DNA of 64,000 nt from contig MEUZ01000003.1 of the NCBI GenBank assembly GCA_001772615.1, forward strand, positions 286,433 through 350,432, written 5' to 3'. This document shows, piece by piece, positions 1 to 50,760 of the stretch; the first letter of the stretch is position 1, and every line of letters starts with the position of its first letter. Under the pieces are notes generated by a model. The model worked only from the letters and a program-made list of their open reading frames with translations, made no database searches and had not been told where the DNA came from. This DNA is from a candidate division WWE3 bacterium RIFCSPHIGHO2_01_FULL_40_23 (GTDB taxonomy: Bacteria > Patescibacteriota > WWE3 > UBA101185 > 2-01-FULL-41-18). The translations under genes were made by a program, and so were the position numbers.

Positions 1-3000
1 ACTTTTGAAGGAAAAACATAATTGGATTTTGCCACAGATATTGAGTAGGCTCCGGGTTCCACAATGAACTCATACCTTCCGTAAATATCTGAAATACCCT
101 GAACCTGCTGGCCTGTTTTAGTGTCTTTTAAGGTAATAACAGCAGGATCAAGCGGTTGTTTGGTCACGGAATCGTAAACAACGCCCCAAGGATGCCTTTT
201 CTTTTTTAAGAGACCGAAAAGGGCATACGGTATATTGTAAATCGGTATTTTTGAGATTGCGGTAAGATATATTTGCGTGAAGTTGTAAACACTAGGCAGG
301 TTAAGAAGTGTTACGGAAGTAGCAAGGGTTAAGGCCGATGCCCATCTTTTTGCAAATGCATCGTCTATTGCGGTTACGGCTCTACCAAAAAGAGGAATCT
401 TTTTTAGGGAATCCACTGATCTTTTTATGAGTGTGGGTTTTCTTAGCTCTTCCTTGGTTTCTGGGACTAATGCAAATAGCTCACTTCCCGAAGTAGTTGT
501 TTCAAACTCATGCCTTGCGTCAAACACATAGTTTTTATTCTGGCTCATTACCTCATAGTAGTAAATGGTTCCCGGCTTTAATCCTGTTATCTTAAGTTTA
601 TGTTCAGTTGTCTTTTCTTTTGAATAAACATCCGACCCGTAGTCGTAGCTTAATCCGTAGTTTACCTTGCTTGTGGCATGATGATTTGTTTTCCAGTAAA
701 TAACAGCGTAGTCCGTACCTACTTCTATTACCTTTACATCACTGATTATGGTGGGATCCCTGTCAAACCACACCTCGGCGGTAATGACTATGTTTTCAAC
801 AAGTTGGTCTATTACAGGCTGTATGGGACTTAAAAGATTTCCCGCAAACTCAATTAGTTCGGCAGGAAGTAAAGAAATAGCATCAGCTAAACCATCGGCT
901 ACGGTAGTTACAACGGTTGTTACGGTATCTACGGTATCCCAATATAAATCGGTAACTGCATCTACCACGTCTTCAATGATGGGAGTAATGGGTTCAATTA
1001 TGGAAGGGGGGGGAGTTTCGGATGGTGTCACTGTTGGTGTGACGGTTTCTGAAGGAATTGGAGTTGGGGTAGGTGTTGGGGTAGGAACGGGCGGGGGTTC
1101 CGAGATGGTAAGGTTAAATGTCTTTGACTCCCCTTCATTATCAAGTTCGTCCTTTCCGGATAGAGTTATTCTGTAATCACCATAGGGCATATCTTCATTT
1201 ACCCTGTAAGAAAAATCCGAATATTTATCCGATGTGTTCTTGGTGTTATCCGTTACCTCTGATCCATCAGAGGAAAAGAAGGTATCGGAGATGTTGATGT
1301 TTGAGATAAGGAATGTTGAATAGGTTCCAAGAGCCCCCTTCTTTTCTATTGTCAGTTTAACTTCTTTAGGGCCGACGGCTACCTCATTCTGCTCGCTGTC
1401 CCCATTTAGCGGATCAGTTATCTTTCCGTAAAAGGTTGGCCTTTGGCTTGTTATGTCAAAGGAGCTTCCAGACGCGTTAGAGCTATCTACTCTATTTAGA
1501 TTTACCGTTGGGCCCGTGAGATCAACAAAGACTGTTGATGATTCAGTTCTATCGTTATCCGCATCATCTATAGCCTTGACAGTCCATCTTCTTTTACCTT
1601 CTTTAAGCTTTCCGTCATTTCCCGATCCCCATGATCCTGATGATTTGGTATAAAGGGATATCTTATCATCAGAGTCGGAGGAAGTATTAAAACCGCTGTA
1701 GGAAATTACATAGCTTGACGTCTTTTTATCTTTTGTTCCGCTAGGCTTGATGTTTTCTATCTTAAAGTCACCGCTTGCTCCGTTATCTACACTAAAGGTA
1801 TAACTGTCAAGACCGTCATCATCTATAGCACCTTCCCATTTAAAGGTTGGTCTTTGATCATTGATGTAAGACTTATCATCAGGAAGGATGAGATCAAAAG
1901 ATTCAGGGTCTGTAGTATCATCAGAAGTAGCCGGGCCTGTTATCAGTTTTGAGATAGTTGCGGCAAAGGCTTCATTTCCAAAGTTATCTATAGCCCATAT
2001 TCTAAAGTAGTATGTGCTGCCGGTTGTTAAGCCGGTTATTATGGTGGAGGTAGCTGAAACATTGGTTAAGTCTGTATCATCGCTGTTATCCCATTCTGAA
2101 GCCGTTCCACTCCTTGCTTCTACATCAGTCTGATTTGTTCCATACCATATTTCATAATGGTTAAAGTTAGCTTCCGTTGCTCCTGCCCAGGTGAGAGGAG
2201 CCGTAGTGGATGTGGAAGTAGCTGTTAAGCCGCTAAGTCCGGATGGATCAAGATTATCAACCTCAAAGGAAGAGGAGGTAGCCACCGAGCCATCTTCCGA
2301 GAAATCACTTGGAGTTACCCTAACTCTGATATCCGTCTGGTTGGTGTCATCTAAAGATCCGTTACCATTTGATGATGATTTGGTATCCCATACTACGGTT
2401 AAGGTAATACTCCCCGTGGATGTGTCTATGGGATTGGACTGACCTACCTGGTAAGTGTCGGAGTCACTAAGGCTAACTGATCCTCCCGAAGGAGTAGCGG
2501 ATACTAGATCCAAATCATACCAGCTTGTCCCTGCATCATCCGAGTATTCAACCTTAAGTCTTGTATCCTGGCTATCAGTTTCTGAAACCGTAGTAGAGAA
2601 TGTAATGTATCCTGTTCCATCAGTGGCTTGAGATATGGACGTGGGAGCTGTTGCCGAGGGTGCATTAAAGTCCCATCCTGTGTTATTTAAAGAGTTGGTG
2701 ATATTAAACCCCGAAGTTTCAATAAAAGTAGAATTGACATTGTAGTTATCTTTTACATCAAGGTAAGATATTGTTCTTGTTCCTTGAGGGTCTATCTGGG
2801 CTTGAGTGTCAGTTATGGAAGACCTTAGAGACAATAGGTTACCTAAAGTACCTGATAGATTCATAGTACCTGTAATAGTCTGGGCTACACTTGCAGGAAA
2901 GGTTAAGGTTCTAGCGGGTGTAGTTATGTTTTTAGTAAGGTTAGTAAAGATTGTAGTGCCTGAAATACTTTGGTCTCCCCCATCAAGCACTACACTACCG

Positions 3001-6000
3001 CTTCTTGGTGTAAAAGTATCCGAGTTGCTCCAGTCCCCTCCTACATTTATCTGGTTACTGACTCCGGATTTAGTGTCAAGTGTTCCCCCCGTTATGGTTA
3101 AATCGTCATCTACATCTAAAGGATCCTGAAGTTCAAGAGTTAAAGATCCACCCCCATCATTAATAGTAAGATCATTAAAGGAATCCCCACCGGATGTTAA
3201 CGTTTTGGTTCCGCTCGTCCCGTTAAAGTTAACCAAGCCCGAGTTATGGGTAAAGTTTGCAGAGTTGGTGAAGTTTCCTCCGATGTTTAAAGTTGTGGGA
3301 GAGACAAAAGTCCCACCGGAAACCGTAACGTTATCTGTTACTGTTCTGGAGGAAATAGCCATTGTAGTAAAACCTGCGGACAAAGCGTTCATTTCATTCT
3401 GGGTTAAGGCTCTGGTGTACACTCTTACTTCGTCTATTTGGCCGTCATAGTCATTTCCAGATTTATCCTCATCTATTCCTATCGAACTTCTCTGGCTGGC
3501 TGTGTTTGAAGTGGATGTTGCGGTAAAAGTTATCGTGCCCGTAGCGGATTGAGAGACACTGTTAAGATACATGGTAACGGTATCGTTGGTATAGTCTATA
3601 GTGCAAACAACGTGATACCAAAGACCGGTAATAAGATTGGTAGCAGAGGTAGTTTTGGTTTGAACTGCTTCAGTATCACCGGCGGAACCAAAGCACTGCA
3701 GTTCATCACCGCTTGTCGCAAATCCCGCGCGGGTATCGGCGGTGCTATCCCCTGTAGATAAGCCAAAGATCTGATCAACCCCGGAATTGGAGTCTTTTCT
3801 TATCCAGGCGGCCATGGTAAAGACACTAATATTTTGAGCGAGATTTAAGCTATCACCCATGTTGAGGTAATCTCCAGCTCCATCAAAGTCCATGGCAAAA
3901 GGGTTGGTGTCTTCTATGTCAGGGGCAGTTGCCGTAAAAACAGCGTTGGTCGGTGTAGCGGTATTATTGTTGGTAGATGAATCTTCCACTGTTCCACTCC
4001 CTTCATTCATTTTCCAGTACCCAACTTCGGAGCTAGTTAAAGTGTCCGACGTAGGTGCGTCAAGCGTGTCAGAGGCATCAGTGAATAACACAGTGAGATT
4101 TTTGTAGGGCCAATCCCTGATTGGGAATGATTCAGCCGATCCGTCTCCATCTCCTTTATATGTAACAGTGGTGCCTGTGTTGAGGGTAGGCGTTTCTATG
4201 GGATCTGAACCGACTAGTCTTAGAGTCCCCCCGTCTTCCACGGTAAAAGTTGAGCCGCAGTCAAAGGAATAGCCATTGGTGTCAAAAATGCCCTCAACAA
4301 CGGTGCAGGTCTGGCTACTGGTTCTAAAGCCGGAGATAAGAGATGCGGCGTTGGAGCCCGTTTTATTAATCCTTAGAACTGAGGAGAAAGTACCACCAGT
4401 CATGCTAAGTGTTTGAGCGGCCGATCCCGTGAGGTCAATGGTTAGGTTCGCCCCTCCAAAAGTCCCTCCTGTCTGCGAAAAATTGCCGGTGACTGTAAAG
4501 GAAACTGCGGACGCGGGGTTTAAAATAAGTGTGCCTATTACGGTTAAGTCACCCATGGCGCAACTATCGTTTAATGCAAGGTCATCCGATCCACCCTTGT
4601 TTATAGTCATAGAATCCCAGGTAACTGTGCCGCACGTTAAAGTGTCATCGCCGAGGGATGAATTTAAAGTTAAATCTATGCCGTCGGGAAGCACATTTCC
4701 GCTGTTATTAATGCTGTCAGTCACACTTAAGGTGGTAATACTGGGGAATGTACCCCCGTTAAGAGTCAGATTACCGGTGAGTGTAATGGTGGTGCCTGTC
4801 ATGATAAGTTCCGCACCAACGTTTGAGGTGTAGCTTCCGGTTGATGTCCAGTTCCCGGTGATGTTAATAGTGCCGTTGTTAGTTATGGCTCCTGAAGTTG
4901 AGGGATTGGTACCGGCTATGGGTATTATGCAACTACTAGTAAATGTAATACCATGCGTTGAAGCCTTACTCAAGGTTACGGAATTCCAGGTAACTGTTCC
5001 GCACGTTAAAGTGTCATCGCCGAGAGAATCAGTTAATGTCAAATCTATGCCGTTAGGGAGCAAATTTGTTGCGTTATAAAGGTCGCCGGCCACGCTTAAA
5101 GTGGTGATGCCTGCAGGGAAAGTGCCCCCGTTAAGAATTAAAGTCCCGGCGGTAATGGATGTACCTGTCACTGTCAGGAACGACCCAGCGTTTTGTGTGT
5201 AGGGTCCGCTGTGAGTCCAGTTACCAGTTATGTTAATGGTGCCGTTGTTTTTTAGAACCGCTGTTGTGGTTGGATTAGTGCCGGCTATGGGAAGTACGCA
5301 GCTGCTACCTATGTTCATGTCGTATTGTAAACCCTTGGATATAGTTACGGAATTCCAGGTAACTGTTCCGCAAGTCAAAGTATCATCACCGGAAGTATTG
5401 GTTAATGTTAAATCTATGCCATTGGGAAGCACATTGCCGGTGTTATTCAGGCTGTCACCTACGCTTAAAGTGGTGACACCTGCGGGGAAAGTACCTCCGT
5501 TAAGGGTGATTACTCCCCCCGTGAATGTAACAGAAGTACCTGTCATAATAAGGAACGCCCCTGTGTTTGATATATAACCCCCGTTGTGAGTCCAGTTACC
5601 AGTTATGTCAATAGTGCCGTTGTTTGTGATAGCTGCGGTGGTAGACGGATCTGTGCCTGCTATGGGGAATGTGCAGTTGCTTGAGATTGTGACAGAGTTT
5701 GAGGAGGAACCTTTACTGATATTTATGGCATTAAATGTGACTGAATTGCAGGAATAAACGGAGGTGGTAGTGCCATCAAAAGTTATTGTTCCACCGCCAG
5801 CGCTAAATACGGGGGAACCCGAGATGGTCAGGGAGGAGGAAATAGTCATTGTTTCGGAAGTGGCGGTAAAAGTTCCTGCAGATAGTGTGAAGGCTCCATT
5901 CAGGTCAATTGTTTGGGAGGTACTGTCAAAAGTACCGGCCGCCTGATCAAAGTTACTGGAACCGATTGCTAAACCCGTGTTTGCGGTAATGATACCCGTG

Positions 6001-6353
6001 TATCCGGAATTAATATCAATGCCTGCTACTGAACCCGCAAAGCCTGAATCAATGTTGGAGTTTTTGGTTGATGTTGAACTAAAAGTCGCGATGTCTGATG
6101 ACCCGGGTTGCGTATCATCTGACCAGTTAGCATCACATGACCACTTTTCCCCGTCTCCCACACCTCCCCCGCATGTACCATCTGTTCCCTCCCCATCCCA
6201 GGTTCTTACTACTGCGTAAGATTTCCCGGAATACAAAAGAAGTAAGAATATAAAAATACACAGAGCTGCAAAAAACCTTAAGCAGACGTTTACAAAATTA
6301 ATTTTTGCAAAAGCAAAAACACCGAAACTTAATCCGCGGTTAGAAAATTTCAT
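1..6353 (-). CDS. Giant secreted/surface repeat protein, partial: the C-terminus lies beyond the window start. It is interrupted by paired frameshifts near 5100 and 4978.
   Basis: The ATG at 6353-6351 opens MKFSNRGLSFGVFAFAKINFVNVCLRFFAALCIFIFLLLLYSGKSYAVVRTW..., a signal peptide/TM N-terminus. Manual translation downstream gives Gly/Thr/Asn-rich repeats (GTFTA, ITGNWTHNGG, LTLNGGTFPAG, DDTLTCGTVTW). A LamG_3 motif set spans ~3400-3900 (FAMDFDGAGDYLNMGDSLNLAQNISVFTMAAWIRKDSNSGVDQIFG ... GIDEDKSGNDYDGQIDEVRV). An FN3-like ITGLTTGSTYYFRIWAIDNFGNE sits at ~1980-2040 and a PT linker PTPTPTPIPSETVTPTVTPS at ~1020-1080. Frame 0 relative to 6353 was spot-checked open at 1020, 1980, 3420-3900 and 4440-4979. 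The ORF track lists no minus-strand ORF here. Confidence 0.75.
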   Translation of the reverse strand, partial: MKFSNRGLSFGVFAFAKINFVNVCLRFFAALCIFIFLLLLYSGKSYAVVRTWDGEGTDGTCGGGVGDGEKWSCDANWSDDTQPGSSDIATFSSTSTKNSNIDSGFAGSVAGIDINSGYTGIITANTGLAIGSSNFDQAAGTFDSTSQTIDLNGAFTLSAGTFTATSETMTISSSLTISGSPVFSAGGGTITFDGTTTSVYSCNSVTFNAINISKGSSSNSVTISSNCTFPIAGTDPSTTAAITNNGTIDITGNWTHNGGYISNTGAFLIMTGTSVTFTGGVITLNGGTFPAGVTTLSVGDSLNNTGNVLPNGIDLTLTNTSGDDTLTCGTVTWNSVTISKGLQYDMNIGSSCVLPIAGTNPTTTAVLKNNGTINITGNWTHSGPYTQNAGSFLTVTGTSITAGTLILNGGTFPAGITTLSVAGDLYNATNLLPNGIDLTLTDSLGDDTLTCGTVTWNSVTLSKASTHGITFTSSCIIPIAGTNPSTSGAITNNGTINITGNWTSTGSYTSNVGAELIMTGTTITLTGNLTLNGGTFPSITTLSVTDSINNSGNVLPDGIDLTLNSSLGDDTLTCGTVTWDSMTINKGGSDDLALNDSCAMGDLTVIGTLILNPASAVSFTVTGNFSQTGGTFGGANLTIDLTGSAAQTLSMTGGTFSSVLRINKTGSNAASLISGFRTSSQTCTVVEGIFDTNGYSFDCGSTFTVEDGGTLRLVGSDPIETPTLNTGTTVTYKGDGDGSAESFPIRDWPYKNLTVLFTDASDTLDAPTSDTLTSSEVGYWKMNEGSGTVEDSSTNNNTATPTNAVFTATAPDIEDTNPFAMDFDGAGDYLNMGDSLNLAQNISVFTMAAWIRKDSNSGVDQIFGLSTGDSTADTRAGFATSGDELQCFGSAGDTEAVQTKTTSATNLITGLWYHVVCTIDYTNDTVTMYLNSVSQSATGTITFTATSTSNTASQRSSIGIDEDKSGNDYDGQIDEVRVYTRALTQNEMNALSAGFTTMAISSRTVTDNVTVSGGTFVSPTTLNIGGNFTNSANFTHNSGLVNFNGTSGTKTLTSGGDSFNDLTINDGGGSLTLELQDPLDVDDDLTITGGTLDTKSGVSNQINVGGDWSNSDTFTPRSGSVVLDGGDQSISGTTIFTNLTKNITTPARTLTFPASVAQTITGTMNLSGTLGNLLSLRSSITDTQAQIDPQGTRTISYLDVKDNYNVNSTFIETSGFNITNSLNNTGWDFNAPSATAPTSISQATDGTGYITFSTTVSETDSQDTRLKVEYSDDAGTSWYDLDLVSATPSGGSVSLSDSDTYQVGQSNPIDTSTGSITLTVVWDTKSSSNGNGSLDDTNQTDIRVRVTPSDFSEDGSVATSSSFEVDNLDPSGLSGLTATSTSTTAPLTWAGATEANFNHYEIWYGTNQTDVEARSGTASEWDNSDDTDLTNVSATSTIITGLTTGSTYYFRIWAIDNFGNEAFAATISKLITGPATSDDTTDPESFDLILPDDKSYINDQRPTFKWEGAIDDDGLDSYTFSVDNGASGDFKIENIKPSGTKDKKTSSYVISYSGFNTSSDSDDKISLYTKSSGSWGSGNDGKLKEGKRRWTVKAIDDADNDRTESSTVFVDLTGPTVNLNRVDSSNASGSSFDITSQRPTFYGKITDPLNGDSEQNEVAVGPKEVKLTIEKKGALGTYSTFLISNINISDTFFSSDGSEVTDNTKNTSDKYSDFSYRVNEDMPYGDYRITLSGKDELDNEGESKTFNLTISEPPPVPTPTPTPTPIPSETVTPTVTPSETPPPSIIEPITPIIEDVVDAVTDLYWDTVDTVTTVVTTVADGLADAISLLPAELIEFAGNLLSPIQPVIDQLVENIVITAEVWFDRDPTIISDVKVIEVGTDYAVIYWKTNHHATSKVNYGLSYDYGSDVYSKEKTTEHKLKITGLKPGTIYYYEVMSQNKNYVFDARHEFETTTSGSELFALVPETKEELRKPTLIKRSVDSLKKIPLFGRAVTAIDDAFAKRWASALTLATSVTLLNLPSVYNFTQIYLTAISKIPIYNIPYALFGLLKKKRHPWGVVYDSVTKQPLDPAVITLKDTKTGQQVQGISDIYGRYEFIVEPGAYSISVAKSNYVFPSK
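4440..5760 (-). repeat. Tandem array of about 3.5 near-identical ~369-bp (~123-aa) coding repeats inside the giant gene
   Basis: The motif gtaactgt(t/g)ccgca(c/a)gt(t/c)aaag recurs at 4621, 4991 and 5359, with spacings of 370 and 368 bp. The translated units are nearly identical: ...PIAGT(D/N)P(S/T)T..ITNNGTI(D/N)ITGNWT...LNGGTFP...NGIDLTL...GDDTLTCGTVTW. Confidence 0.85.
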
Positions 6354-6402
6354 TTGTATTTAAATTTTACATGTGGACGACGGACATTTCCACCTCTATG
6401 AT

Positions 6403-6487
6403 GTCATTCTGGTGAAAGCCCAGAATCTAGGATTATAGATCCCGGGTCAAGCCCGGGATGACATGAAGTCAGTTCAGGATGACAAGC
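6403..6487. repeat. Array of 2-3 short hairpin repeats (GTCAT-stem-loop-ATC family) in the tsaB / giant-gene intergenic region
   Basis: Unit one is gtcatTCTGGtgaaagcCCAGAatc. Unit two is gATCCCGGGtcaagCCCGGGATgacat. A half-unit tcaggatgac follows. The same flank motif recurs at 20862-20952, 23323-23336 and 50696-50760. Confidence 0.7.
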
Positions 6488-19734: not shown

Positions 19735-20478
19735 CTAATCAAACAAGGTTAAAATCAAAGGACCGTCTTTTGTGACCGCAATGGTGTGTTCAAATAGCGC
19801 TGAAAGACTCCTGTCCTTGGTGATTATCGTCCACCCGTCTTTTTCATAATCAATTTCATAACTTCCCTTTTGATAAATTACTTCAAGAGCTAAAACCATG
19901 CCTTCTTTAAGAATAGGCCCCGTTCCAGCTTTTCCAAAACCCGGGACAAAAGGGTCTTCATGCAGTGACTTCCCAATCCCGTGCCCGACAAGATCTCTGC
20001 TTACCGTAAAATCTTTACCCTCTATAACTTTCTGAATAGCGTTAGAAATATCCCCGACTTTATTTCCGACTATGCACATACTAACAGCATCACTTAGTGC
20101 GAGCCTTCCCGCGGAAAGAAAGTCTTCCTGAACGTTTGTTTCTACCTCAACTGTATCCGATAAATCAGTATGAAAGCCTTTGTATAAAACACCTAGGTCT
20201 ACTTTTACAAGATCGCCTTTTTTTATAACCCTTTGATTTGGAATCCCGTGAACAACGCCTTCATTGACATTTATACAGGTTGTGAATTTATAGTTTTTAA
20301 CGGTCTTAAATGAGGGTTTTCCCTTATGATTTAAGATATATTCCTCAGCGATTTTATCAAGTTCAATTGTTTTTATGCCGGCTCTCACGTTTTTTAAAAC
20401 TTCTTTTAAAGCGCCCGCGGAGATCATTCCCCCCTCCCGCATCACTTTTAACTCTTCCTCCGTTTTTAGAGAGATCAT
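19735..20478 (-). CDS. map: Methionine aminopeptidase type I
   Basis: 247 aa with the pita-bread fold metal-site residues. Canonical position downstream of secY-adk. Confidence 0.9.
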   Translation of the reverse strand: MISLKTEEELKVMREGGMISAGALKEVLKNVRAGIKTIELDKIAEEYILNHKGKPSFKTVKNYKFTTCINVNEGVVHGIPNQRVIKKGDLVKVDLGVLYKGFHTDLSDTVEVETNVQEDFLSAGRLALSDAVSMCIVGNKVGDISNAIQKVIEGKDFTVSRDLVGHGIGKSLHEDPFVPGFGKAGTGPILKEGMVLALEVIYQKGSYEIDYEKDGWTIITKDRSLSALFEHTIAVTKDGPLILTLFD

Positions 20479-20559
20479 AAGGCCACTTTAGAGTATTTAA
20501 ACTAATTTGCAAACACCTATATATTTGATACAATTTCTACTAACACTTTTTCAGAGGCC

Positions 20560-20860
20560 CATTAGAAAACATAAAAAGACCAGCCCTGGTCCGCCCTAAC
20601 TCAAAAGTGAGGGTAAGAAGAACCTGGCCTTAAGGAGAGAAACACACATGGATCCTGGTTTCAGCCGCAAGACCAATCGCCTTTATGATCACCCCTGCAC
20701 CGCGGCCAACGACAACGGCACCAGCTAGCGCGCCGGCCGGGCCCTAAGGGTTGTAAATGAACACAACCCCCCAAAGGCCAACAAACCCTCGGTTCTTGCG
20801 ACCAATGAACCGGGGGTTCCCTTTTCCCATTTCACATTGAAACTTAAAATGTACCTTCTC
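20560..20860 (-). ncRNA. Candidate structured ncRNA or foreign island. GC is about 57% over ~300 nt in a ~39% GC genome. Class unknown.
   Basis: No ORF of 60 aa or more. Contains strong local helices (GGGTTGT...ACAACCC, GGCC...GGCC, CCGCGG runs). The minus-strand terminator at 20574-20597 lies at its 3' end. Alternatively, on the plus strand, an SD (aaggagag) precedes a 27-codon ORF MDPGFSRKTNRLYDHPCTAANDNGTS. Confidence 0.3.
20574..20597 (-). terminator. Intrinsic terminator on the minus strand
   Basis: Minus strand reads GGACCA gggc TGGTCT followed by TTTTTATGTTTTC. Confidence 0.5.
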
Positions 20861-20861
20861 T

Positions 20862-20952
20862 GTCATCCCGGACCTGCCTGTCGTAGACAGGCACATGATC
20901 CGAGATCTCCACAAAAGATCCAACGGGATCCCTGCTTTCGCAGGGATGACAT
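20862..20952. repeat. Hairpin repeat array of the same GTCAT/ATGAC family
   Basis: gtcatCCCGGACCTGCCTGTCgtagACAGGCA ... gATCCCTGCtttcGCAGGGATgacat. It translates to the VIPAKAGIP-type spurious ORF 20744..20974. Confidence 0.7.
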
Positions 20953-21022
20953 GAGAGCATTTGATCAGGATCAAAATTTGTAGAACAATGCTTTCACATC
21001 AATAAGATAAGGAGAGATCCTC

Positions 21023-21250
21023 ATGAAAACCATCCTTCTAGCAGAGTTTGATAGGAGTTTTGATCTGCAGAAGCTCAAAGAAATCAAAAGAATACCTCAT
21101 GTGCAATCTGCTGAGGTAGTCACCGGGCGGATTGATCTGGTGATTGTGATCATGGCAAGAACCGACGACCAAATTTCCGCAACCGTGCAAAAGATCAGGA
21201 AAATAAAAGGTATTAGATCAATATCAAGTCATGTAGTTCTAAAAATCTGA
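21023..21250 (+). CDS. Stand-alone Lrp/AsnC-type RAM (ligand-binding) domain protein, 75 aa
   Basis: Beta-alpha-beta-beta-alpha-beta pattern ...VTGRIDLVIVIMARTDDQISATVQKIRKIKGIRSISSHVVLKI. SD-like ggagaga upstream. Confidence 0.55.
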   Translation: MKTILLAEFDRSFDLQKLKEIKRIPHVQSAEVVTGRIDLVIVIMARTDDQISATVQKIRKIKGIRSISSHVVLKI

Positions 21251-21288
21251 CCCACCTCCAGGCTCGTTTTACAAACAGCCTGGATTTT

Positions 21289-22158
21289 TTATCTTGCTCC
21301 TACAATTCCGGACAAATCAAGAATGTTGCTTTCACTACCCATAACCGTCGGGAGCTTGCCATCCCATTTTTCAATCCACATCTTCCTTAAAAGTTCATTA
21401 GTTATTGACGCCCTCAAAAGCTCCTGTTCCCTTGCCATACCTTCCGCCTGGGTTATTCTGGCCTCTTTTTGAAACTTTGCCTGTTCGGCTCTATTCTTTT
21501 CGGTTTCAACCCTTACTGCCTCAATCTGCTTAGCCTCAATCGCCTGAATGTATTGAGGGGTAAACTTAATTTCCCTTATCCCAACCTCATCAAGAATAAT
21601 GCCGTTCTCCTCAAAGGAAGGCTTAAGCTGACTTTCCACTCTATTCTGAACCTCAAGAACGTTTCCCGTATAAAGGTCCGCCGCCTCAAATTCTCTGGTT
21701 ACATTCCTTGTCCATATTCTTGAGTCGGTTTTAACTATCTTCTCTACAAGGTCATCCTCCGAACCGATATTTTGAGCCACCCAAGTTGCCTTTTTAGGAT
21801 CAATGCTAAATCTTACCGTATAAAAGATATCAACCTGTTGTCCATCTTTGGTGTTCGTGTCAACCGGATAGTCTTTATAATCCGCTCTTGACCCCTGCTG
21901 TTTCTCAACGGTTGTAGTCTCATATATTACTTTTTTGGTGTTGTACCTAAGAGTTGATTCCGCAATAGGTAAAATAAAACTGGCTCCCGGATGCAAAACT
22001 CTTCCCGTTACCCGTCCAAATCTTGTCACGACTTCAACGGTTCCAGGCTGCACCATTTTTAACGAGGACAAAATAACAATTAAAAGAACCGCGGAAAGAA
22101 AAATGGACCCAAAAGACTTTGCTGCTTTTGCACCAAACGATTCAAATGTTACAACCAC
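21289..22158 (-). CDS. SPFH/band-7 (prohibitin/HflC-like) membrane protein
   Basis: N-terminal TM, a band-7 core, and a C-terminal coiled coil (IEAVRVETEKNRAEQAKFQKEARITQAEGMAREQELL). Confidence 0.75.
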   Translation of the reverse strand: MVVTFESFGAKAAKSFGSIFLSAVLLIVILSSLKMVQPGTVEVVTRFGRVTGRVLHPGASFILPIAESTLRYNTKKVIYETTTVEKQQGSRADYKDYPVDTNTKDGQQVDIFYTVRFSIDPKKATWVAQNIGSEDDLVEKIVKTDSRIWTRNVTREFEAADLYTGNVLEVQNRVESQLKPSFEENGIILDEVGIREIKFTPQYIQAIEAKQIEAVRVETEKNRAEQAKFQKEARITQAEGMAREQELLRASITNELLRKMWIEKWDGKLPTVMGSESNILDLSGIVGAR

Positions 22159-22159
22159 T

Positions 22160-22717
22160 TTACTTCACCTCCTTTAACCTGTTCATTATGTCAAGGAAAA
22201 TTTCCTCAATAGACCTCTCTCCATCTACATCCTCCACAATACCTTTGGCTTTAAAATACTCTATCACCGGACCTGTTTTTAAATCATGCTCCGAAAGGCG
22301 TTTTAAAACCGCTTCCGGTGCTTCATCCGATCTATGCTCTAAATCAACTCTCTTCTGAATTCTTTTCATATATTCGTCAGGGCTCACAATCAAATTAAAG
22401 ACCTTATCAAGCTTGATATTTAATTCCTCCTCCATAAACGGGATCTGATCCACCGTTCTTGGAAAACCCGTGAAAACAAAACCTTTGTTCGCGTCACACC
22501 GGTTCTTAACATATTCTTTTATAATCTGAAAATAAATTTCTTCGGGGACATACTCGCCGCGGTCCATATATTCCTTCGCTTTCATACCCATTTCAGTCTC
22601 GGAGCTTTCTCTTAGCATTGCCCCGCTGTCAAGGAAATTTAAATTTAATTTTTTTGCGATAAGTTTAGCTTGTGTGCTTTTACCCGACCCCTGCGGCCCG
22701 CTTACAAGTATATGCAT
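22160..22717 (-). CDS. Adenylate-kinase-family NMP kinase, second paralog
   Basis: P-loop VSGPQGSGKSTQA, an NMP-binding region and a short LID. 185 aa. Confidence 0.75.
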   Translation of the reverse strand: MHILVSGPQGSGKSTQAKLIAKKLNLNFLDSGAMLRESSETEMGMKAKEYMDRGEYVPEEIYFQIIKEYVKNRCDANKGFVFTGFPRTVDQIPFMEEELNIKLDKVFNLIVSPDEYMKRIQKRVDLEHRSDEAPEAVLKRLSEHDLKTGPVIEYFKAKGIVEDVDGERSIEEIFLDIMNRLKEVK

Positions 22718-22757
22718 AAATTATTATAGGCACCAATAAAAAGAAATGTCCAAAGCA

Positions 22758-23291
22758 CTATGAAGCATTCATATGGGAAGTAATTTGATTAAACACATCT
22801 TCTTTGTCTTTTTCGCCGTCAATTTCTACAAGTCTTCCAAGTCCTCTGTAATAATCCAAAACTTTTGACGTTTTCTCATGGTACCAGGAAAGCCTGTTCT
22901 TAATTCCTTCTGGGGTGTCATCAACCCTTCCTCTTGCCCTTAATCTATTCACAGCAGTTTTATCAGAAATATTAATAAAAAACACGTTACTCACATAGGG
23001 GTCATACATATACAGCTGTTCTATTGAGCGGGGATATCCGTCAAGAACATACCCATTTCTACAATCATTCATTGAGAGCCTTAACTTTAAAATTTCAGAT
23101 GCATACTCGTCGGGGACAAGCTTTCCCTCCTTCATAAGCGAACAGGCTTGTCTGTTAAAATCGGCTTCCACTTTGCAGGATTCTCTGATCAGATCGCCTA
23201 TATCTATAAGAGGTGCGTTGAGCCAATTCGCAAGAAGTTTTGCCTGCGTCGTCTTTCCGCTTCCCTGCGGCCCAAGAATTGTTATTTTCAC
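22758..23291 (-). CDS. adk: Adenylate kinase (short type)
   Basis: ILGPQGSGKTTQAKLLA ... VLDGYPRSIEQ ... RARGRVDD. Canonical position after secY. Confidence 0.85.
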   Translation of the reverse strand: MKITILGPQGSGKTTQAKLLANWLNAPLIDIGDLIRESCKVEADFNRQACSLMKEGKLVPDEYASEILKLRLSMNDCRNGYVLDGYPRSIEQLYMYDPYVSNVFFINISDKTAVNRLRARGRVDDTPEGIKNRLSWYHEKTSKVLDYYRGLGRLVEIDGEKDKEDVFNQITSHMNAS

Positions 23292-23586
23292 TTTTTTATT
23301 ATATATCTAAACTATCGCGGATTGTTTTGTGTCATCCTGAACCCTTTTGGACAACCAATTTTAATAATAGTAATATAGAACAATCCCAAAGGAGTTCTAA
23401 CATGTCCATGCAAAAAGCGGATTTTGAAGAAAACGATCCCGAAACAATGCGCTTGAGAAGGCAATTCATGACCTGGGTGATGATAATCTTCGCTATCGCA
23501 CTGGCGGGGATCATAACCCTTGCCATCCTCCCAATGTTTCTGTACTAGAACCAGACCAAACCGCTGTTTGCCAAAACGGCGGTTTT

Positions 23587-23853
23587 TTACAATCCCGGAA
23601 TACCAAGATCCGAAAGCTGGCCTTTCATTTTCTTGGCCACCTTTTTCTGAACCTCTTTTAAAGCGTCATTAATCACATCTTTTAACCTTTTATCCTCAAC
23701 ACCGTCCACTTCAATCTTTTCTATATGGTTATCCCCTCTTACAACAAGCTTAATACCTCTATTTTCATACTCTACAAAGATCTGCTCCATTTCTTTTTTC
23801 ATAGAGTCGGCTTGCTTTTTTAAATTGTAGAGATCTTTCATTTTGTCAAACAT
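23587..23853 (-). CDS. ybaB: Nucleoid-associated protein YbaB/EbfC
   Basis: 88 aa: MFDKMKDLYNLKKQADSMKKEMEQI...KMKGQLSDLGIPGL. Confidence 0.75.
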   Translation of the reverse strand: MFDKMKDLYNLKKQADSMKKEMEQIFVEYENRGIKLVVRGDNHIEKIEVDGVEDKRLKDVINDALKEVQKKVAKKMKGQLSDLGIPGL

Positions 23854-50692: not shown

Positions 50693-50695
50693 AGT

Positions 50696-50760
50696 GTCAT
50701 TCCCGCGGAAGCGGGAATCTCACTAGATTTTCGCTGGAGTTTACCCTACGAAAGCAGTGA
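50696..50760. repeat. Hairpin repeat (gtcatTCCCGCggaaGCGGGAatc) plus a degenerate second unit, same family
   Basis: Same GTCAT...ATC flank as the 6403 and 20862 loci. Sits between xseA and the small membrane ORF. Confidence 0.65.

Follow-up and report, generated by a model that had tools for sequence, protein, structure and literature searches.

A GC-rich intergenic island upstream of map in a WWE3 bacterium: a possible lineage-specific small gene with two palindromic hairpins

Within a 64,000-nt stretch of DNA (the window) from the groundwater candidate phyla radiation (CPR) bacterium WWE3 RIFCSPHIGHO2_01_FULL_40_23, we analysed a GC-rich island that lies upstream of map, inside the spc/alpha ribosomal-protein gene cluster on the minus strand. 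Our best reading, which we hold tentatively, is that the island may be a lineage-specific micro-gene read from the plus strand and accompanied by two palindromic hairpins (H1 and H2), housed in a permissive slot upstream of the map promoter. The excess of GC would then be accounted for by codons rich in G or C at the third position (high GC3) and by GC-rich stems, and not by a large folded RNA.

The island occupies part of the intergenic region between map and a plus-strand gene for a stand-alone Lrp/AsnC ligand-binding (RAM) domain. This region spans 20479-21022 and is exactly 544 bp long, as had been stated in an initial interpretation made from the DNA letters (the sequence-only reading); on a rough gene map it is the longest intergenic region of the window. 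The same reading had given the GC content as ~57% over ~300 nt, a value that holds for the core (57.6% for 20640-20830, and 61.6% for 20687-20824) but not for the whole of 20560-20860 (51.8%), in a window of 40.5% GC. The 150-nt maximum of the island is 0.607, compared with a window mean of 0.405 (standard deviation 0.053), and this is the only non-coding GC peak in the 64 kb; two other peaks of comparable height, at ~56.5 kb and ~60.5 kb, fall inside long open reading frames (ORFs) with low-complexity coding sequence rich in Pro, Gly and Ala. No long ORF is present in the island itself, again in agreement with the sequence-only reading.

What the island does contain is a small ORF on the plus strand, and the earlier description of it as preceded by a Shine-Dalgarno (SD) sequence was correct: there are 26 codons followed by TAG, with AAGGAG 10 nt before the ATG (Table 1). 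The codons of its second half are almost purely of the NNC or NNG type, so that GC by codon position over 20687-20725 is 0.54/0.62/0.92, the GC3 of host ribosomal-protein genes, map and secY being 0.30-0.43. GC3 is 0.54 in the first 13 codons of the ORF and 0.92 in the last 13. A run of 18 consecutive NNS codons (G or C as third base) spans 20687-20740, with GC3 of 0.92-1.0 across 20687-20739, and thus continues for five codons beyond the TAG. Upstream, the best site found in a promoter scan, TTGCAA-16-TGaTACAAT, points into the island and may act as a promoter; the transcription start of a putative plus-strand unit was placed from this site. Its palindromic TTGCAA (20507-20512) is also part of the promoter motif of map on the minus strand. 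The 10-mer TAAGGAGAGA occurs at 20631-20640 and again at 21008-21017, where it provides the SD context of the small ORF and of the RAM-domain gene, respectively; this may reflect a favoured SD context, a minor duplication or mere chance (~0.2 occurrences expected). The predicted peptide had no match in Pfam or NCBIfam, and the exact peptide was absent from a collection of 15 billion proteins. A type I toxin-antitoxin system was considered and rejected, as the peptide, read from the sequence, is hydrophilic and lacks any hydrophobic stretch.

Directly 3' of the ORF stop lie H2 and H1. When the sub-structures of the region were tested singly for folding energy against dinucleotide shuffles, only these two individually exceeded the shuffled controls, and they did so on both strands; H2 has an energy of -16.5 kcal/mol on the plus strand (z -2.35) and -22.9 kcal/mol on the minus strand (z -3.52). 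The island had been described as dense in helices, which is borne out for H1 and for the GGGTTGT/ACAACCC helix of H2 but not for the helix formed from CCGCGG and GGCCGG (H3), which is no more stable than shuffles; these two sequences are mere 6-nt palindromes. The plus-strand sequence that follows H1, CCCTTTTCCCATTTC (20819-20833), forms a weak U-tract. Upstream of the ORF, the segment 20541-20650, which covers the putative 5' leader, is predicted to fold at -26.5 kcal/mol (z -2.76), with an outer helix that joins the 5' end to the SD region (AAGGAG, 20632-20637). Folding of the whole island gave -108.7 kcal/mol for the minus strand (z -2.27) and -83 kcal/mol for the plus strand (z -1.84). The difference of 26 kcal/mol in favour of the minus strand is matched by shuffled sequences and so reflects the richness of that strand in G and U.

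The island was found in a single species. Fifteen other contigs from ENA, JGI and Logan assemblies of several samples carry the region with 100% identity across its 544 bp; they therefore come from the same organism and give no covariation information. Among 5.8 billion proteins, the closest Map homologues share only 60-67% identity, and the ribosomal proteins of the five closest lineages are about equally distant from those of the window. The island is absent from the syntenic site in eight related lineages, whose arrangements upstream of map are given in Table 1, and an nhmmer search with the island against L016-L019 gave nothing. A pseudogene of the RF-1-like gene of L016 was rejected as its origin since tblastn detected no similarity, and a GC peak in L016 (565-715) was rejected as a relative because it corresponds to an opposite-strand gene for a small membrane protein and is unrelated.

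Wider searches were also negative. At the nucleotide level, blastn in 'distant' mode against phages and plasmids gave only chance matches of ~30 nt in GC-rich genomes, three exact 20-22-mers had 0 matches in IMG/VR, and a purine/pyrimidine (RY)-degenerate pattern for H1 retrieved only the organism's own contig from the JGI metagenomes. At the protein level, nine concatenated reading-frame segments (covering five frames out of six, as the longest open stretch of the remaining plus frame fell short of 25 aa) had no match among 5.8 billion proteins, and the longest open frame, of 56 aa, had none by phmmer among 1.84 billion representatives. The same 56-aa frame, back-translated and compared with GTDB genomes, gave one spurious match, to a 67.5%-GC Acidobacteria metagenome-assembled genome without DNA similarity. 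The island is thus an orphan, with no detectable relative in the collections searched. The comparison with related genomes that the sequence-only reading had proposed accordingly found no homologue and, within these searches, no conservation, a result which that reading had named among those that would speak against it; with no homologue to align, there is no covariation in favour of a structured RNA.

Two contigs deserve mention in this connection. L014/L021 (JGI Ga0209210_1013968; 3.7 kb) is 100% identical to window 20390-21327 and then continues as unrelated DNA inside map; at the junction, 20390, the first 29 codons of Map are fused in frame to the C-terminal part of a class-II aminoacyl-tRNA synthetase. 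This is probably a chimeric assembly and possibly a real rearrangement. Contig L011 ends within the island, at window position 20753.

The site in which the island resides seems to be set apart by the promoter of map. A motif of the form TTGCMA-N16/17-TAAAGT/TAGAGT-6nt-ATG, or in its longer form TTTGC(C/A)A-N9-AAAT(A/C)C-YY-TTA(A/G)AGT-6nt-ATG, lies upstream of map in the window and in L024, L016 and L017, and persists where the end of adk directly precedes it. It resembles an internal promoter. With a -10 element placed only 6 nt before the start codon, transcripts would begin at the ATG or beside it, and the map mRNA would be leaderless. With a promoter of its own for map, insertions just upstream would leave expression of the operon intact, which would explain why the cargo found there varies between lineages. 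While the motif is conserved in these four lineages, the contents of the slot differ: L016 has an RF-1-like gene there and L024 a small ORF, and the slot is empty in L017, L022 and L025-L030. This suggests that the slot is a hot spot for lineage-specific insertions.

The L024 lineage (strain variants L023 and L031-L033) is of particular relevance, as its 505-nt adk-map gap carries a GC island of its own (61-66% GC, L024 616-1120, in a genome of ~40% GC) without nucleotide or peptide similarity to that of the window. It lies in the same slot, in the same orientation as the small ORF of the window and divergent from map. The L024 island holds a small ORF of 61 codons, MKTRTNSPPSASNVNLELSNFTCGSRARNTAYGTNT...SISDG, with GC by codon position of 0.38/0.57/0.93, a TTGACA-17-TAGAAT promoter and an AAGGAG SD sequence; hairpins at its 3' end finish in a bidirectional terminator shared with adk, and gene callers predict the ORF in three assemblies. 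Judged from these features, it is clearly coding. Of the seven single-nucleotide polymorphisms (SNPs) that distinguish the four strain variants in ~1.4 kb, four are located in the first 48 nt of this ORF; each of these is nonsynonymous, so that the ORF is either fast-evolving or unconstrained. A broader proposal, speculative and rather improbable in our estimation, is that WWE3 bacteria may keep a 'micro-gene slot' beside a conserved, probably leaderless map promoter, into which unrelated, fast-evolving, GC3-rich small ORFs, or structured RNAs with a dual function, would repeatedly be installed and from which they would be expressed; on that proposal the islands of the window and of L024 may both belong to a novel class of small genes confined to single lineages, and would not be junk.

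Table 1. Coordinates of the island, its signals and the surrounding genes (window positions unless another lineage is named; H1 and H2 energies are compared with dinucleotide shuffles).
Feature	Position	Strand	Remarks
Promoter-like site	TTGCAA 20507-20512; -10 at 20529-20534	plus	TTGCAA-16-TGaTACAAT; points into the island; 9/12 matches, extended -10 TG
Putative 5' leader	20541-20647	plus	two small hairpins, 20577-20592 and 20594-20613
SD sequence	20632-20637	plus	AAGGAG, 10 nt before ATG 20648
Small ORF	20648-20728	plus	26 codons + TAG: MDPGFSRKTNRLYDHPCTAANDNGTS
Tryptic peptide of small ORF (predicted)		plus	LYDHPCTAANDNGTS
H2	20740-20779		outer GGCC/GGCC, inner GGGTTGT/ACAACCC, 8-nt loop
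H1	20784-20818	both	12-bp stem AACCCTCGGTTC / GAACCGGGGGTT, 92% complementary; ~-21 kcal/mol on either strand, z -3.4
Weak hairpin (terminator-like in pattern scan)	20577-20592	minus	GGACCA/UGGUCU, loop GGGC, then UUUUAUGUUUUCU
Divergent control region, AT-rich	20479-20570		GC 0.304
map promoter motif (putative)	-35 20512-20507; -10 20490-20485; ATG 20478	minus	TTGCAA, 16 nt, TAAAGT, 6 nt, ATG
map motif, extent	20478-20516	minus	L024 1080-1123; L016 3516-3559; L017 3345-3388
Two repetitive extragenic palindrome (REP)-like hairpin repeats	20861-20951		inverted 9-mers TGTCATCCC / GGGATGACA; abut the island
map	19735-20478	minus	
Genes following map		minus	infA, rpmJ, rpsM, rpsK, rpsD, rpoA ...
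RAM-domain gene	21023-21250	plus	75 aa; 3' of the island, same strand as the small ORF
Band-7 gene	21289-22158	minus	
Gene order along transcription		minus	secY, ybaB-like, adk, adk
L017, L022, L025, L026-L030			upstream of map: adk abuts or overlaps map
L018/19			upstream of map: 143-nt gap
L016			upstream of map: divergent 219-aa RF-1-domain gene

If the small ORF is indeed a gene, the following course of events can be envisaged. An insert of atypical composition would have entered a permissive slot of the spc/alpha cluster, in divergent orientation to map. There, the sigma-70-like site TTGCAA-16-TGaTACAAT (20507-20534) would drive a miniature plus-strand transcription unit with a leader of ~107 nt and then the AAGGAG SD sequence, from which the NNC-rich 26-codon ORF would be translated. 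H2 and H1 may stabilise or end the transcript and insulate it from its neighbours in both directions, and the array would end in a pair of REP-like hairpin repeats of a ubiquitous kind. Transcription, its strand, translation of the ORF and the terminator or insulator role of H1 and H2 are all deduced here from sequence features. Several observations weigh against this reading. The combination of AAGGAG, a start codon and an ORF of 24-29 codons occurs by chance ~5 times elsewhere in the window (p ~0.1); the codon periodicity extends over only ~18 codons and crosses the TAG, so that it could be due to chance or be the trace of a longer ORF that has decayed. The peptide is without homologue and gave no BLASTP alignment with the L024 peptide, the ORF was left uncalled by the gene callers in all 15 assemblies, and the poor plus-strand U-tract after H1 failed the terminator scan. 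Moreover, the SNPs of the L024-lineage ORF, all of them nonsynonymous, are no sign of purifying selection.

Much of the same evidence would fit a non-functional relic, in which a decaying GC-rich small gene, either acquired horizontally or once longer, and the palindromes that accumulated with it are tolerated in a neutral slot, a reading that we regard as somewhat unlikely. The confinement of the island to one species, with nothing at the site in eight relatives, and the failure of every search to find a homologue agree with it, as do the unremarkable z scores of the overall fold, the accumulation of REP-like repeats alongside, and the fact that the periodicity runs through the TAG into a frame that stays open for 84 more codons. 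A relic is harder to reconcile with the intact promoter-like site, SD sequence and ATG, and with the compactness of CPR genomes, which seldom retain 350 nt of junk; the 100% identity over 15 contigs also speaks against decay, as weak evidence, since the strains differ by only ~0.1% overall. The sequence-only reading had instead put forward a novel structured RNA, which in concrete terms would be a minus-strand small RNA (sRNA) of ~230-280 nt running from ~20850 to a hairpin and U-run (20577-20564), acting either in trans or as a long leader of map-infA-rpmJ-rpsM. This we consider unlikely. Long GC-rich intergenic regions (GC-IGRs) of AT-rich genomes are enriched for structured RNAs (PMC11109978), the G+U-rich minus strand folds the more stably of the two, H2 is more stable on that strand, and a terminator-like site does mark the end of the island, ~90 nt before map. 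However, the energy advantage of the minus strand disappears against composition-matched shuffles. The intrinsic terminator claimed earlier exists in so far as a hairpin is followed by a U-run, but it is weak: the stem has 6 bp, including one G-U and three G-C pairs, closes a 4-nt loop and is followed by TTTTATGTTT (span 20592-20564), and its energy of -7.1 kcal/mol does not differ from shuffles (z -0.10). Three terminator-like sites were found in the region against 1.0 expected, and on the plus strand this hairpin would be part of the putative leader of the small ORF, ~36 nt from its 5' end. Nor was any sigma-70-like promoter found on the minus strand of 20780-21060, even at 8/12 matches, and the map promoter is located downstream of the terminator, so that the island is not needed as a leader. 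The proposal of a structured RNA gained no support: the searches yielded no homologue on which covariation could be assessed, and no Rfam family claims the island. The scan with Rfam that had been suggested gave 0 matches for Rfam 15 at the gathering threshold over the whole 64-kb window and, at E<=10 on 20400-21100 (701 nt) and 20560-20860 (301 nt), only chance-level ones (sR40, 16.5 bits compared with a threshold of 50; Poribacteria-1, 22 bits compared with 74.2, the latter outside the island), and ARAGORN detected no tRNA or tmRNA. The island therefore belongs to none of the known RNA families. A minus-strand protein-coding frame was also considered and rejected, as the GNN-periodic frame GPAGALAGAVVVGRGAGV has no start giving at least 25 aa and no SD sequence; the equivalent frame in L024 is closed by TGA and has no start codon.

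The sequence-only reading had also allowed for a leader peptide with attenuation, and of its alternatives it is the ORF that gained most support, through the promoter-like site, the GC periodicity of its 3' half and the coding ORF in the slot of a relative; the specific role as a leader peptide or attenuator did not. In such a scheme, translation of the ORF (which ends ...Asn-Asp-Asn-Gly-Thr-Ser) would gate H2 and H1 and thereby read-through into the RAM-domain gene. The ORF stop (20726-20728) is suitably placed, 12 nt before H2; the 5' arm of H2, GGGUUGU, has two alternative partners, the 3' arm ACAACCC of H2 itself and ACAAACCC at the base of H1; a tract containing U follows H1, and the downstream gene is on the same strand. 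We nevertheless judge it very unlikely, in view of the lack of any run of regulatory codons, the poor quality of the U-tract, the ~190 nt and two unrelated REP-like hairpins that lie between H1 and a gene with a plausible promoter of its own (20961-20989), and the small ORF of L024, which has no downstream gene. Hardly credible, finally, is a composite mobile insertion in the manner of a miniature inverted-repeat transposable element (MITE), in which the island and the hairpin repeats would form one non-autonomous element. The island does abut two such repeats, as had been reported, and its restriction to one lineage and absence from the relatives' syntenic sites would suit an insertion; in addition, the two copies of TAAGGAGAGA (at 20631 and 21008) are a direct repeat bracketing 367 bp, there is an imperfect 16-nt inverted repeat at 20642/20966, and contigs L011 and L014 break or diverge at the locus. 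Neither the direct repeat, as a candidate target-site duplication, nor the candidate terminal inverted repeat is significant, however, as in 700 bp a 10-mer repeat is expected by chance ~0.2 times and a 12/16 inverted repeat ~10 times, and both copies of TAAGGAGAGA are SD sequences. A search for other copies, which had been proposed as a check, found no second island in the window, and there was none in the JGI metagenomes or in viral contigs; it is the adjoining repeats that recur. Their form, TCATYCC-stem-GAAA/GGAA loop-GGRATC, is present at three intergenic sites of the window (20861-20951, 6400-6485 and 50695-50722), and the consensus TCATYCCNGCGRAAGCNGGRATC matches at least 120 IMG/VR contigs. 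The repeats at 20861-20951 thus belong to a very widespread palindromic family and are not specific to the island. Among the matches listed, the island was absent from all 1.08 Mb of this repeat-carrying IMG/VR DNA (120 loci), which indicates that the island and the repeats are independent neighbours and not parts of one element.

The surroundings of the island are themselves unusual. The RAM-domain gene has a Pfam PF01037 match of 45.1 bits (cut-off 25), and its 75-aa product is identical to A2716_04585 of candidate division WWE3 bacterium RIFCSPHIGHO2_01_FULL_40_23, its sole database match being itself. It may have its own promoter, TTGATC (20961-20966), 17 nt and AACAAT (20984-20989), with 8/12 matches. 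At 21251-21290 a hairpin, CCAGGCTCG...CAGCCTGG, is followed by TTTTTT and makes a good plus-strand terminator for this gene; on the minus strand, where it follows the Band-7 gene, the hairpin has no U-run, so that minus-strand read-through over the RAM-domain gene and the island as far as the weak terminator at 20577-20592 is conceivable. More generally, the spc/alpha operon is split between secY and map by an unusual cargo (window 21023-23853), comprising a ybaB-like gene, a small plus-strand membrane-protein ORF (~23403-23548), two tandem adenylate-kinase paralogues, a Band-7/SPFH gene and the opposite-strand 75-aa RAM-domain gene, for which a word search found no homologue. At the far left of the window, a giant minus-strand ORF of at least 2119 codons occupies 1-6359 and runs off the end; it accounts for the apparent absence of ORFs from the list, and for the uneven GC, over the first 6.4 kb.

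Should the small ORF or an RNA from this region be expressed, it would add another orphan micro-gene to a CPR genome, a matter of local interest for the annotation of reduced genomes that would leave existing concepts as they are. The reading that we favour, a plus-strand micro-gene with two palindromic hairpins, would also mean that GC3-rich small ORFs and palindromes, rather than large non-coding RNAs, can account for long GC-rich gaps between genes in CPR genomes. Irrespective of the island, the conserved promoter motif that map has of its own in several WWE3 lineages, placed 6 nt before the ATG, points to an mRNA without a leader.

Comparison with known systems reveals partial resemblances. 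The island motif UUAGGGCGGACCAGGG superficially resembles the T-box AGGGUGGNACCGCG and, as in a T-box leader (RF00230), coincides in part with a terminator-like hairpin that precedes a gene; it differs in lying within the 5' arm of the terminator and not upstream of it, in being one base shorter, and in the absence here of a Stem I or specifier loop, and map does not belong to a T-box-regulated class of genes. A T-box leader, considered on account of the motif UUAGGGCGGACC, was rejected for this wrong architecture and because RF00230 gave no match at E<=10. Rho-independent-terminated sRNA genes share with the island a ~250-nt GC-rich stretch of hairpins that ends in a hairpin and U-run on the minus strand of a genome that is compact elsewhere, but here there is no promoter, the terminator is marginal, and conservation and an Rfam family are lacking. 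H1 and H2, near-perfect GC-rich palindromes that fold equally well on both strands, 3' of an ORF and beside true members of a widespread repeat family, recall REP sequences, bacterial interspersed mosaic elements (BIMEs) or bidirectional terminators; they differ in being single-copy in the DNA searched and in lacking the TCATYCC...GGRATC signature of the neighbouring repeats. GC-IGR screens of AT-rich bacteria by the Breaker laboratory find unannotated small ORFs in long GC-rich intergenic regions (PMC11109978, PMC6429828). That category calls for a start and stop conserved in several representatives, whereas the island has a single representative and its L024 analogue shares no sequence with it, and under the scheme of these screens a single-representative case like this one would rank as an 'unnamed / low-ranking candidate' (PMC11109978). 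What the island does have in common with the small ORFs of the GC-IGR screens is the arrangement itself: a long GC-rich gap containing an SD sequence, a start and a short ORF, followed by hairpins.

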